The position numbers and the translations under genes were made by a program. From NCBI GenBank assembly GCA_951406725.2, contig OX597814.1:148676001-148740000 (forward strand): a stretch of DNA of 64,000 bases. The letters are read 5' to 3'. Positions 9,272 through 26,060 of the stretch are shown in pieces. Position 1 is the stretch's first letter. Every line of letters starts with the position of its first letter. The notes below the pieces were generated by a model, which saw only the letters and a program-made list of their open reading frames with translations, was not told the origin of the DNA and ran no database searches. This DNA is from Octopus vulgaris (taxonomy: Eukaryota).

Positions 9272-10406
9272 ATGACCCATAGTAGGGGTTGTCCGTGGAA
9301 TCTATTTTAATGATCAAGTAACCTGAAAGTGAACCTGTTTTGCTTATAGCAATAGTGGTAGGAACTGCTATAAATAATCTCTTGCGTAGCAACCGTTTTT
9401 ATATCTATTAGTTTTTAATATTTGCATGGGTATTATTCTATGATCCTTCTAGTAAAATCATCTGTGGAGGAAATATTCAAAAGATGTTTATATTTTGCTA
9501 CAAAATATCATTCTTTACTAATGCACTGATTATAGGTTGGATTGACCCTAAATTTATAGAGCTGGAAAACTTCTCAAATTGGATTGTTCGTTTGTGGCAC
9601 AGATGGCACGTTCTTCACATAATGCTATTTTTCTGTATATATATTTTTTATGTGTCTGTGAGAGAGAGAGAAAGATAGATTGAGAGAGGAATGTGCCTCT
9701 GGGCTTCAATATGCGGGTGGGTCATTACTTTTCAATATTTTAATACATTTAAATACCATAGGGACGTGAAATGCTTGTTACTATTCAATGACAAATATGA
9801 AAATGCGATGGAAATTTTAAAGGAAGTACACGAAAAAATGCTTATAACATCGAGACCTGCATAAAAATTAAATGGCAAAAGTATTTGATAAAGATTCAAG
9901 ACTTTCGAGACATTAGTTAGCTACAAGTCATGATACACATTTTAAATTGATTACGATCCTTCGTAATACATTAAGTTAGCAATAGTAAGTGATTATTTTA
10001 AAGTATCATATAAGAAAACGTATTTGGTAAGCTATGTGCAAGAAGTATTGTTCGTCGTCATTACCTCTACTATTTCCAATGCAAAGTCTATACTATATTT
10101 CAAGCTGGTGATGCCTATATATATATATATATATATATATATATATATATATATATATATATATATATACATACATATATATATATATATATATATATAT
10201 ATATATATATATATATATATATATATATATGTGTGTTTATATACATATATACCTAAAAATATGTATATATATATATATATATATATATAGTTGAGTATAG
10301 AGATTCGGGGTGAGTACTTGATAATTATAAGCACCTGTGTATACCGTTTGGTGGTGTAGGTGGTGGAGTAAATTGATCAAAATAAAAACATGATGCCAAG
10401 GATTCA

Positions 10407-10484
10407 GCGGTACATATGTTTCGGGCCTTTATTAGACAGATTTATAACAATGCATAATGTATGTCTGTGGCCTTCTTCAGCCGC
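10407..10484 (-). ncRNA. Type I hammerhead ribozyme motif (left arm of the palindrome)
   Basis: Minus strand reads GCGG-CUGAAGA-A-GGCC[ACAGA..UCUGU..]GGCC-C-GAAAC-AUAU-GUA-CCGC. Stem I is GCGG/CCGC, the core is canonical, stem III is palindromic (ACAUAUGU), and the cleavage triplet is GUA. Confidence 0.75.
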
Positions 10485-10964
10485 GCACAACAGCTTCCAC
10501 AAGGACATGTGTTACATCAAAAATTCTTGGTTGGGATGCAAATCCTCTCATTCGCGTACGACATAATGCGGCAACAGCATAGAATTGAAGCGTCCATCTC
10601 TTTCTTCTCTCAATGTAGAATGAGGAAATTTGGATGTTGAAGTAATGTAAATAAATAAATACATATATAGACGTGAGGATGGAGGGGCGAGAATTCAGGA
10701 CGAGGGATAAAAAATGTATAAAAAGTGTATACATTTTTTATCCCTCGTCCTGAATTCTTGCCCCTCCATCCTCACGTCTATATATGTATTTATTTATTTA
10801 CATTACTTCAACATCCAAATTTCCTCATTCTACATTGAGAGAAGAAAGAGATGGACGCTTCAATTATATGCTGTTGCCGCATTATGTCGTACGCGAATGA
10901 GAAGATTTGCATCCCCAACCAAGAATTTTTGATGTAACACATGTCCTTGTGGAAGCTGTTGTGC

Positions 10965-11042
10965 ACGGCTGAAGAAGGCCACAGATATACATTATGCATT
11001 GTTATAAATCTGTCTAATAAAGGCCCGAAACATATATACCGC
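10965..11042 (+). ncRNA. Type I hammerhead motif (right arm), slightly decayed
   Basis: Same fold as 10407-10484 but with AUA instead of GUA and one stem I mismatch. Confidence 0.6.
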
Positions 11043-11272
11043 TGAATCCTTGGCATCATGTTTTTATTTTGATCAATATATATATGTGTGTGTTTATATA
11101 CATATATACCTAAATATATGTATATATATATATATATATATATACCTGTGTATATATATATATGTGTGTGTTTATATACATATATACATAAATATATATA
11201 TGTATATATATATATATATATATATATATATATACCTGTATATATATATGTGTGTGTGTGTTTATATACATA

Positions 11273-22600: not shown

Positions 22601-24749
22601 TACATTCATACGTACATACATGCATGCATACATACATACATACAAACATACATACATACATACATACATACATCCATACATAGACGCACATATATTTTCC
22701 ACATACTTATCGAATTCTTTATAGTTTCACTTTGAAAATATTCCCTCAACCTTACATACATATATATGTGTCGGTTTGTATGTGTGCAATTGTATATGTA
22801 TGGGTGTGTACTTGTATGTTAGTATGTTAGGCAGCTATTCATGTAGTTTAGCGTAATGTATAACTGCTTTATATACATCAGCCGGTGCCATAATGCATGA
22901 CGTACTCATCCCGTAGAATTGAAATTTTCTGGCAGAGTGAATTGCGTAATGGTGCTGTTTTCCTCACAGACTATGCTCAACAGCCCTACTATACTGTGTA
23001 CTCGACAAAATAGAAACAAACAAACATAAAATGGCGATAATTTACCCATCACACCATATATATATATATATATATAGATAGATATAGATATAGATATACG
23101 TTCCTAGTTACCATGGAACTATGTTTAGAAAGCCTAATTGTCAGTACAAATGCCATAAAATTTTCCATTAAAACTTAAATATCATGTTATATCCGAGAAA
23201 TATATACTAACCGAATCACTAATTCTAAATATTGTCATAACATTCTAGCATTTAAATACATGAAAGTTATTTGATATACGTACCTTTCATAGTCTCTTTT
23301 TCCCTTCATTTTCACCTACTTTACAGGATCATATTCATAAACTAAAATATAATTCGTCGAAAAATTCAAAAGAACTTATTTATGTCTTTCTCTTATTAAT
23401 CTACCGTTAGCTCTTTAGTAATTGTCCTCGGTTATGCCACGTTCTGTAAAAACTTATTGCCGCTCTTTTTCCCCTTCTTTCTGTCGTTTGGTATATATTT
23501 TTGTGAAATTAATTGTCATTTGTTAACACTGCTTTTCGTAGGTCCGTAGAAGTCTACATTGTTTGCTCTAATATATTTAAGTAGATGTATTTGCATTAAT
23601 TTGTTATGTATTGATGACTAATCAAGTATGTGGAAAATGCCCAGTGTAGTCTATGGCAACAACAGGACAATTGGTTTGAAGCGTATAAAAGTAGCATATA
23701 GACGTCTTTCAATTAGCGATATTTGTTCCATTGCATTTTCTCTTGTCGAGTTCATTGACTTGAGAAAATAATACTTCTCTTATCAAAATATTCACTTGCT
23801 GATTATTTCTGATTTCTATACCGCTTCCTATATTTGTGTGTATGTATATATGTATGTATGTACGTATGTATGTGTGTGCGTGCTTCTGTATGTGTCTGTG
23901 ACTGGAGTGTGTGTATATATGTCTCTGTGTGTCAGTGTCTGTATATATCTATATCAATATATATATATGTTAGTAGTTATTTAGCTGGCGGAGTTTGGCT
24001 AATGAGAAATCACGCGCCAATTTGGAGCTAAATTTCGAAACCGGTACCAAGGAGACCAGCATGTACTTGTTCTGACCCATTTGAGGTAAGACATTTTTAT
24101 TGTTCCCTGATAAATTTTCTTATCTTGTCTGTAATAGATTTGTGTCTATTTGGTGGTACAGAAGTAATTTTTGACTTCTATCAATAGCGATATAGGTACT
24201 CATGTATTACCCTTGTGTAAATATGTACATATCTAATGTTGTATATATATATCTTATTACTTTGCCTGTACGGCTGATAATTCGCTTGCCACTTGTGATG
24301 GTATTTTAATAATACCATCTCTCTCTCTCCCTCTCTCTCTCTCTCTCTCTCTCTCTCTCTATATATATATATATATATATATATATATATATTCCGATTT
24401 AGAGGTGTTAGCCCTATTAGGGGATGGTATCATCCAAGGAAATACTGGTTCAGTACCTAATATTTTGAGAGAATTAATTTCCTTAAAATAGGCAAATATG
24501 AAGACTGGAAATTTACCAATTGTTTATTATTAACAACAGATCAATCGTCATCCCTCAGAGTTGTTTCAATTAGTACTCAGTGAATTAATTAAATATCAAT
24601 TTCATATCACTGAGCATACCAATGTATGTTTATAAATGTGTTTATGGATTCATTATGTATCTATATATATATATATATATATATATATATATATATATAT
24701 ATATATATATATATATATACTGGACGCTCAAGAAAGGAAAGAAAGAAGG

Positions 24750-24790
24750 ATGACTTAACGTTTCGAGCGGAGATCTCGTCGTCAGGAACA
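24750..24790 (-). ncRNA. Minimal hammerhead motif in a small Penelope-pLTR-like fragment within (TA)n
   Basis: Minus strand CUGACGA-C-GAG(AUCUCCG)CUC-GAAAC-GUU-AAG; canonical core, weak stem I. Confidence 0.55.
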
Positions 24791-25867
24791 TGGTGTTTAT
24801 ATATATATATATAATATATATATATATATATATATATATATATATATATATATATATATATATATATATAATGGAACTATGATTATTTATATTAAAAAGG
24901 AAAAAGGTCCTTTATAGAGAAGGAAGGAAAAAGGAAACAAGGAAGGAAAGACGGAGAAAGGAAATCGCCAACGATACATACGTGTTTATATATATATATA
25001 ATATATATATATATATATATATATATATATATATATATATATATATATATATATATATATATATATATATATATAATGGAACTATGATTATTTATATTAC
25101 AAAGTATGTATGAAATTCGAAACAATTTGTTGGCCTTTTATAGTCTTTACAATCATTTGTATAATATTATGTTATGTTATATATTATATTCATAGTATTT
25201 AATGTAATATAGTAATATAAATAAATTATTGGATTTTCAATAGAATATCTCTATATTTTATTTATCTTTATACACACACACACACACACACACACATATA
25301 TATATATATATATATATATATATATATATATATATATATATGTGTGTGTGTGTGTGTGTGTGTGTGTGTGTGTGTGTGCGTGTATGTTTGTGCGTGCGTG
25401 TGTATGTAAGTATATGTGTATAGATATATGCGCATGCTTATATCTATAAATACGACTATTTTGATATGAGTGAGTGGGAGAGTGAGTGAGAGAGAGGCAA
25501 GAGAGAGAGAGAAAGAGATGTGAAGTAGTCAATCTTCTATCGTCGCCAAAATGAGGCAAAGGTTGGTAATATAGCAATAAATGTATACATGCGTAGGTAT
25601 GATTATTGGAAATGTGTTAGTGTGTATTGTCTGGACCAATTATTTAATGATATATTCTCAAAGTAGAATTAGAATGTCGCGAATACATAAAAAATGCTCT
25701 ACTACGTGCATGACGTATATTTTCTCTTTTTTGACTCCACGCACAAGTATGTGTCAGTCAATATATTCCCTCAATCTCGCACGCTTTCGCTATCTCTATT
25801 TCATTCTTCTCCATATGTATATATGTATATATGTGTGTGTGTGTGTGTGTGTGTGTGTGTGTGTAAT

Positions 25868-26060
25868 TGTAATAAGTGACAATTATTCGGTAGAAATGAT
25901 AAAACTCCGAGTTTCGGATGCCGAGGTGGAAATCCACGCCGCCATCTCTTCACTTATCAGGCCATCGGAAAAAAGTGCTAGTAAAATCCTATAGCCGCAT
26001 AACTGAAGAGATGAAACTCGGAGTTTTATCATGGCTCCCGTATAATTGTCACATATTACA
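25868..26060. repeat. Inverted-repeat mini-element with two divergent hammerhead motifs
   Basis: 48-bp terminal inverted repeats (TGTAATAAGTGACAATTAT..AAACTCCGAGTTTC / GAAACTCGGAGTTTT..ATAATTGTCACATATTACA) plus an inner pair ATCTCTTCACTTAT / ATAACTGAAGAGAT. Confidence 0.85.

Follow-up and report, generated by a model that had tools for sequence, protein, structure and literature searches.

Palindromic hammerhead-bearing repeats in an Octopus vulgaris contig are probably truncated head-to-head insertions of Penelope-like elements

A stretch of 64,000 nucleotides from Octopus vulgaris (assembly GCA_951406725.2, contig OX597814.1, positions 148,676,001 to 148,740,000; hereafter the window, numbered from its first letter) contains three short palindromic repeats, E1 (10372-11077), E2 (13222-13380), and E3 (the 25868-26060 region), whose arms carry hammerhead ribozyme motifs or core-like remnants of them. 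We conclude, with a probability of roughly 0.8, that these repeats are dead, 5'-truncated insertions of three families of Penelope-like elements (PLEs), each consisting of hammerhead-bearing 3' ends placed head to head, with a mirror arm that was built at each insertion. A new kind of self-copying fold-back RNA is likely not what they represent; the palindromic layout itself is already published, and E1 to E3 are three further examples of it. The hallmarks of PLE insertion recur across the set: a terminal hammerhead is present in the left arm of E1 and, with one core change, in the left arm of E3; an inverted head-to-head copy is present in all three elements; a tail at one end consists of family sequence in E1 and of candidate extensions in E2 and E3; and all three elements sit in a microsatellite or AT-rich target.

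The window is AT-rich throughout (GC content of 0.29 to 0.45 per 2 kb) and holds many dinucleotide microsatellites together with retroelement debris. When it was masked for microsatellites and compared with itself by BLAST, eight minus-strand matches were returned, three of which are local fold-backs, namely E1 (913 bits), E2 (59.9 bits; 13224-13377, 71%), and E3 (66.2 bits; 25865-25915 with 26013-26063, 88%). The highest local inverted score in 20 shuffled windows was 42.8 bits, and the three inverted repeats described in the first-pass annotation are therefore real. That annotation had also described them as unrelated in sequence, flanked by microsatellites, and free of open reading frames (ORFs), and each of these descriptions holds. 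Apart from one 26-nt low-complexity match, E1, E2, and E3 share no sequence. Runs of TA, TG, or CA of at least six units lie within 100 nt on both sides of every element, at left and right distances of 83 and 44 nt (E1), 57 and 1 nt (E2), and 2 and 86 nt (E3), a configuration that placements of equal length show in 14 of 8873, 92 of 11186, and 74 of 10952 cases, respectively (0.2 to 0.8%). In the list of stop-to-stop frames (120 amino acids), only two microsatellite-driven frames reach into E1 and E3, and the E1 arm has stops in all six frames. The elements are made up as follows.

10372 to 10720, minus strand: E1 left arm, a 5'-truncated end resembling the pseudo-long terminal repeat (pLTR) of a PLE and belonging to an abundant repeat family (arm comparison, contigs of four runs)
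10721 to 10738, unstranded: E1 junction, a 7-nt spacer and an 18-nt near-palindrome (sequence)
10728 to 11077, plus strand: E1 right arm, without a tail, directly meeting TA/TG repeats (sequence)
13222 to 13380, unstranded: E2, a decayed fold-back with arms 71% complementary (self-BLAST, sequence)
25862 to 26066, unstranded: E3 fold-back (self-BLAST, descriptor, sequence)

The arms of E1 align over 350 columns with seven differences and are separated by 7 nt; five of the six substitutions between them are transitions. Those of E3 are 88% alike over the outer 51 nt, with 28 nt missing from one arm, so that divergence between arms ranges from 2% in E1 to 12 to 29% in E3 and E2. The E1 spacer (10721-10727) opens the near-palindrome at 10721-10738, in which 16 of 18 positions pair. 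The fold falls about 10 to 35 nt from the hammerhead core in E2 (13286-13313) and E3 (25954-26002), and 245 nt upstream of it in E1; short stubs of the former kind may favor a 5' end near helix I. The flanks of E1 are degenerate microsatellite, with a similar 60-nt unit on both sides that also recurs further right. Immediately to the right of that flank, at 11357-11764, lies a repeat in which a 69-nt unit occurs three times.

We searched for hammerheads with a type I descriptor of our own, requiring either an exact core or allowing one core mismatch, and compared the window with 40 shuffled versions. With the exact core, one of the six arms, E1-left, was recovered as the sole match in the window (shuffle mean, 0.075). 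Allowing one mismatch added E3-left, for two arms among six matches in the window (shuffle mean, 1.7; maximum, 5).

10407 to 10484, minus strand: E1 left type I hammerhead, core 10480-10474 (exact-core descriptor match)
10965 to 11042, plus strand: E1 right hammerhead (sequence; fails the descriptor)

The E1-left motif has a 4-bp helix I, an exact core, and an extra A ahead of a long helix II; its helix III is an 8-nt palindrome, and cleavage at its GUA site is predicted after 10411. The extra nucleotide and the palindromic helix III are traits of PLE hammerheads. In E1-right the core (10969-10975) is intact, and substitutions at 10965 in helix I and 11036 in helix III make it likely that this copy is inactive. 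E3-left (core 25953-25947) has G at position 3, a 6-bp helix I, and a predicted cut after 25903; E3-right retains an exact core (26003-26009), 49 nt from its partner, and has lost helix II with the missing 28 nt. The E2 arms hold core-like heptamers of the U3-A8 type at 13285-13279 (minus strand) and 13314-13320 (plus strand), 28 nt apart, and a complete hammerhead was found in neither arm by the descriptor, Rfam, or a covariance model. The Rfam search recovered no hammerhead by its own gathering score anywhere in the window, and none at all at E1-left or E2; its sole suggestion was Hammerhead_1 at E3-right (25999-26029), at 11.7 bits and an E value of 8.9 against a gathering score of 34. The other Rfam matches in the window, all below gathering scores, were microRNA or snoRNA models driven by microsatellites or hairpins. 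The covariance model was trained on 13 minimal hammerheads, in an alignment that is 87.7% paired, with nine of 10 pairs changed on both sides, a measure that is circular since the rows were picked for pairing; helices II and III of E1 and E3 exceed the lengths in that model. Thus, the earlier claim of a type I hammerhead on both arms of every element stands for E1-left and, with one core change, for E3-left, and falls for E1-right, E3-right, and both E2 arms, while the outward orientation of the motifs is upheld.

Each element also has additional nucleotides separating its inverted repeat from the microsatellite, on one side only: on the left of E1 and E2 and on the right of E3. This one-sided sequence was absent from the earlier description of the elements.

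10296 to 10371, minus strand: E1 one-sided 3' extension (a PLE "tail"), 76 nt long and abutting (TA)n (contigs of all four runs)
13165 to 13221, minus strand: E2 candidate tail before (CA)n(TA)n, 57 nt to the run (sequence)
26067 to 26149, plus strand: E3 candidate tail before (TA)n, 86 nt to the run (sequence)

Part of E1 is contained in 20 of 24 listed public sequencing runs, from 13 studies and four coded organisms, and we aligned contigs from four runs to positions 10290-10727, noting that summed depth does not equal copy number. Contigs matching the E1 arm and tail numbered 2558, 882, 629, and 20 in the four runs, and because so many contigs of such widely spread identity fit, the E1 family is abundant. 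The extension at 10296-10371 reaches a depth like that of the arm in the contigs of all four runs. Loose contig ends at 10296 continue into TA repeats (21 contigs in run X1, two in X4), and one contig from X4 passes into TA repeats at 10372. The E1 family accordingly has two 3' termini, one of which is used by each arm of E1, and its 76-nt extension is a PLE tail. Contig cover continues across the whole readable E1 arm in all four runs; in run X13, depth is 157,000 at the hammerhead and drops to about 30,000 in the more 5' part. The innermost 88 nt of E1, treated as a repeat, fall outside the contig alignment, a gap that proves nothing. Twelve substitutions in the family reach a share of at least 5%, none of them in the core or helices, although the motif covers about 35 of 345 positions, too few for this to carry meaning. 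A 20-nt E1 pattern had no match in viral, metagenome, or genome contigs. Two joints within the tail in run X1 (10362 to 10311 and 10359 to 10316) may reflect copies in which short stretches of tail are duplicated in tandem.

The window also contains PLE ends of conventional form. Three related plus-strand stretches (5876-6961, 19300-20210, and 46610-48466) are the 3' ends of one coding PLE family, which we take to be Neptune-like.

19300 to 20210, plus strand: single-orientation PLE 3' end with a minimal hammerhead (20043-20080), an extension, and a TA end (covariance model, self-BLAST)
46610 to 48466, plus strand: broken PLE remnant with reverse transcriptase (RT) and GIY-YIG sequence, a decayed hammerhead, an extension, and (TA)n (protein identity, tblastn)
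24720 to 24798, minus strand: hammerhead-like stub of one arm, standing alone between (TA)n runs (weak covariance model match, 11.3 bits, E value of 1)

The longest remnant is 39% identical over 282 amino acids to a 705-amino-acid RT and GIY-YIG protein (tblastn E value of 2e-64), which itself has an RVT_1 match and a GIY-YIG match just below the Pfam cutoff; Pfam found no family for the window remnant itself. A CxxxxCxxC linker precedes the GIY-YIG region in this three-copy family. The stretch at 19300-20210 matches the ORF-bearing copy at 83% (47678-47771) and 90% (48347-48385), and its minimal hammerhead scores 26.3 bits with the covariance model (E value of 3e-5). The hammerhead near 48350 is decayed, and the 5876-6961 copy lacks the 3' half, leaving one scoreable hammerhead among the three ends, all of which proceed through an extension into TA repeats in a single orientation, with no inverted arm. 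About 580 nt of noncoding sequence separates the ORF end from the hammerhead in the longest remnant, and the 245 ORF-free nucleotides upstream of the E1 core are therefore no sign of nonautonomy. Neither E1, E2, nor E3 matches the PLE remnants of the window. The Penelope connection drawn in the first-pass annotation is supported by the PLE-type hammerhead features, the one-sided tail, the microsatellite targets, and these ORF-bearing PLE ends carrying the same module. As side observations, each member of the three-copy family has U for A6 in its minimal hammerhead, apparently a core variant shared by the whole family; the stub at 24720-24798 (about 80 nt) begins about 13 nt upstream of its core; and decayed hammerhead-like ends lie beside simple repeats at 13540-13690 and 60339-60373 (both minus strand), with model scores at chance level.

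Palindromes elsewhere bear on how the mirror arm arises. We scanned metagenome contigs for divergent hammerhead cores 20 to 50 nt apart and retrieved 105 loci from six of the 64 parts of the collection, from which about 1400 stretches are estimated in total. Self-BLAST found 63 of the 105 to be palindromic, a few of them not clean pairs. A GAAA element that was no part of the search pattern follows the right core in 46 of the 63 palindromes versus seven of the 42 other loci. The palindromic loci cluster into eight families of two to 20 loci and 20 singletons. In the largest family, the 20 loci show 15 distinct core-to-core spacer lengths (20 to 49 nt, almost the full allowed range), and no pair of loci shares a distal flank; in the other seven families, spacers coincide solely where several records represent a single locus (four records in one case, two in another). 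Exactly one tail is present in 18 of the 20 loci, none in two, and two tails in no locus (binomial P of 2e-4 versus independent tails). Tailed and tailless arms are told apart by none of the 88 alignment columns (smallest P of 0.04; 17 loci, with L024 and L079 excluded). One-sided tails were also seen by eye in three of the smaller families. The arms of the largest family have diverged by about 20%, and over 17 loci the two arms of a locus are 79.5% alike versus 76.8% between loci (P of 0.016), a difference that host differences could explain. Because spacers vary and 18 of 20 loci carry exactly one tail, each insertion likely makes its mirror arm afresh, as part of one coupled event. Divergent hammerhead pairs are thus common in public contigs, and junctions that differ from copy to copy are an outcome that the first-pass annotation itself named as refuting its reading, although they are shown here only in families other than those of the window. 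A simple repeat lies within 120 nt of only three of the 63 palindromes, and the layout in general therefore does not include microsatellites. Five loci (L024, L033, L051, L067, and L074) are complex insertions in which the palindrome is accompanied by a third arm or part of an additional one, resembling tandem-plus-inverted PLE structures.

On the interpretation that we favor, a PLE RT and GIY-YIG protein would nick AT-rich microsatellite DNA on both strands, comparable to the activity of an Anolis carolinensis enzyme in vitro (Frangieh et al. 2024, PMC11167929). Because the predicted cleavage site lies inside both arms of every element, the RNA templates were uncut, and reverse transcription would begin on them at a point downstream of the hammerhead. 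One arm would start at the distal site and keep the tail, while the other would start at the proximal site without it, in a single coupled event; synthesis would then halt early, and the two products would join at their 5'-truncated ends, possibly aided by short palindromes like the 18-nt one of E1. The arms would decay independently thereafter, to the 2% and 12 to 29% divergence given above.

This scheme draws on a body of published work. Head-to-head inverted PLE structures with palindromes at the junction are abundant, and palindromes of 18 and 38 bp occur at pLTR 5' ends (Arkhipova et al. 2013, PMC3846280). Craig et al. (2021, PMC8557442) describe a PLE tail of 30 to 40 bp, often at one end only, and call the inverted-insertion step unresolved; both papers report an inverted 5'-truncated copy, a tail, and a (TA)n bias that hides target duplications. 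E1 to E3 are thus like the inverted insertions of endonuclease-containing (EN+) PLEs in their head-to-head copies, junction palindrome, one-end tail, and (TA)n bias, and differ from them in having no ORF between the arms and extensions of 57 to 86 nt. In Schistosoma mansoni, dual minimal hammerheads on opposite strands, about 100 to 700 bp apart, are related to truncated PLEs, and PLE hammerheads show a U3-A8 variant, an extra nucleotide before helix II, and a palindromic helix III, with a dimer thought to be needed (Cervera and de la Pena 2014, PMC4209133). The octopus elements share the opposite-strand pairing and these traits. In E1 and E3-left, however, helix II is much longer and the palindromic helix III measures 8 to 11 nt, which places them nearer to the atypical Drosophila virilis-type motif, and junctions and tails are no subject of that analysis in the passages covered. 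In vitro, the Poseidon enzyme of Anolis carolinensis cleaves AT-rich DNA on both strands and extends them; the tail is delimited by two sites at which reverse transcription starts, and uncut RNA serves as the main template (PMC11167929). E1 to E3 share the uncut templates, and E1 the two-terminus tail, and by analogy the one-tail-per-palindrome rule may reflect coupling to two Poseidon-type start sites, although inverted insertions were not reconstituted in the passages covered. Non-LTR (long terminal repeat) retrozymes are same-strand tandem repeats with at least two hammerheads by which circular RNAs are released (Cervera and de la Pena 2020, PMC7229834; Li et al. 2026, 10.64898/2026.07.22.740005); they resemble E1 to E3 in being noncoding, in the type I hammerhead, and in PLE ancestry, and differ in that each strand of E1 to E3 carries a single motif and no unit is repeated in tandem. 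Penelope-like families are reported from Octopus vulgaris, with no mention of hammerheads or palindromes in the passages covered (PMC13282606), and an unexplained 90-bp palindromic insertion is described from a chaetognath, with no hammerhead analysis in the passages covered (PMC2997562). The literature that we searched, which left most subscription papers and Repbase entries outside its coverage, held no paper devoted to palindromic hammerhead mini-elements.

Folding predictions bear on the role of the ribozymes. The whole E1 transcript is predicted to form a single long hairpin (-635 kcal/mol, 90.5% paired) in which every hammerhead helix has a probability of 0.00. The probability of helix I is likewise 0.00 in a single arm plus tail and reaches 0.38 in the isolated motif, which weakens the argument that the hairpin is what silences the ribozyme. 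A helix III dimer is predicted at -10.6 kcal/mol for E1-left versus -2.4 kcal/mol for E1-right, and the palindromic helix III of E1-left could, on this estimate, pair between two molecules. With one hammerhead per strand, no monomer can be cut out. On the favored reading the hammerheads are passengers of the pLTR, and the long double strand that a read-through transcript is predicted to form would silence them.

Several observations weigh against reading E1 to E3 as inverted PLE insertions. The covariance model matched none of the six arms at an E value of at most 10, the E2 hammerhead is a composite read from two decayed arms, and the tails of E2 and E3 are candidates only, family membership having been read for E1 alone. 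The junction of E1 is unread in other copies, owing to the uncovered innermost 88 nt, and the variable junctions come from other families in other organisms; palindromes can, moreover, lose their centers after insertion and so mimic variable junctions. No target-site duplication is discernible at E1 to E3 within their degenerate microsatellite flanks, no autonomous parent is linked to any of the three, and tblastn found no PLE ORF in the 105 contig loci, with flanks of 300 to 500 nt. The tails of 57 to 86 nt also exceed the 30 to 40 bp given in PMC8557442.

The alternative that fares best is a sub-case of the favored reading and overlaps with it: E1 would be a pLTR-only, SINE-like (short interspersed nuclear element) PLE derivative of about 430 nt, in which the 18-nt palindrome at a natural 5' end sets the fold point and the mirror arm is still made per insertion. 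We regard this as unlikely, though it is the most tenable of the rivals. The near-palindrome does sit exactly at the junction, contig cover spans the whole readable arm in all four runs, and there are published pLTR 5' palindromes of 18 and 38 bp and trans mobilization by the pLTR alone (PMC3846280). The depth drop in run X13 from 157,000 to about 30,000, by contrast, fits progressive truncation, with the reservation that summed depth is not copy number, and the long 3' noncoding region of an autonomous PLE would look alike. The fuller version, which we consider doubtful, holds that E1 is a very abundant pLTR-only derivative with a palindrome-fixed fold point. The genome would then contain a multitude of nearly identical hairpins of 350 bp whose ribozymes are switched off by the antisense arms and which supply long double-stranded RNA to editing or small-RNA pathways, and the strict one-tail-per-palindrome rule would become a direct readout of coupled two-strand PLE insertion.

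Less probable still, and the interpretation offered in the first-pass annotation, is that the elements are dedicated nonautonomous palindromes, akin to retrozymes, that PLE enzymes transcribe and retrotranspose whole as fold-back units. E1 lends this some credit as a near-perfect 350-bp palindrome of an abundant family with no ORF; a palindromic master would likewise yield one tail per copy; and the E1 junction is unread in other copies, while center deletion could produce the variable spacers elsewhere. We disfavor it, however, on the grounds that junctions vary in the other families, that each strand carries one hammerhead, and that the E1 transcript is a hairpin. Every multi-locus family examined shows junctions that differ between loci, apart from multiple records of a single locus and some coinciding lengths in the family of 20. 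Arm-specific diagnostic columns are absent over 17 loci. The predicted 90.5% pairing of E1 RNA, without a hammerhead helix, would make a poor template, and no strand-change joint reaches a share of 5% in the readable part of the E1 arm, so that only the unread center is left to such a unit.

Short noncoding inverted repeats in TA-rich sites resemble MITEs (miniature inverted-repeat transposable elements), and the palindromes might be MITEs or other DNA-transposon remnants whose hammerhead-like motifs are coincidental or captured, an idea helped by the lack of a scoreable hammerhead in E2 and of any from Rfam. We find it quite improbable given the one-sided tails, arms that are palindromic to the center, the exact type I motif of E1 (0.075 expected per shuffled window), and core-like motifs at mirror positions in all three local fold-backs of the 64 kb. 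Perfect palindromes can arise in long-read libraries, and no run contained all sampled E1 words (best share, 0.68), but assembly artefacts in the form of fold-back chimeras are scarcely credible when the arms differ by 2 to 29%, mostly by transitions in E1 and by a 28-nt deletion in one E3 arm, and the same layout recurs at 63 loci of unrelated public contigs. Two narrower candidates were considered and rejected: a MITE with symmetric terminal inverted repeats around an internal spacer and a fixed target duplication, given that E1 family sequence runs 76 nt past the inverted repeat on one side only and symmetry extends to the center, and a non-LTR retrozyme, given one motif per strand and the absence of a tandem copy of any arm from the window.

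The window holds further repeats. A 351-amino-acid open frame at 14928-15983 (plus strand; RVT_1 match, E value of 2e-13) is a fragment of a long interspersed nuclear element, presumably RTE-like. A C-terminal fragment of a non-LTR retrotransposon lies at 41203-41874 (plus strand; weak zf-RVT match), and its relative at 21956-22576 is interrupted by a microsatellite. A SINE-like repeat occurs four times, at 26189-26334, 52905-53038, 58505-58647, and 63056-63198, with copies 71 to 81% alike, and a tandem duplication of about 690 nt (73% alike) spans 34179-35537.

The suggestion that three families converging on one layout point to a general mechanism is sound, but that mechanism is not new: it is the known PLE insertion pattern. 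Stubs like E1 to E3 are readily misannotated as MITEs or microRNA-like hairpins. If the E1 junction were to prove fixed genome-wide, E1 would be a modestly new nonautonomous form of PLE. With the count of one tail in 18 of 20 loci and the varying junctions, what the literature had remarked in qualitative terms becomes a sharper constraint on the building of inverted PLE insertions.

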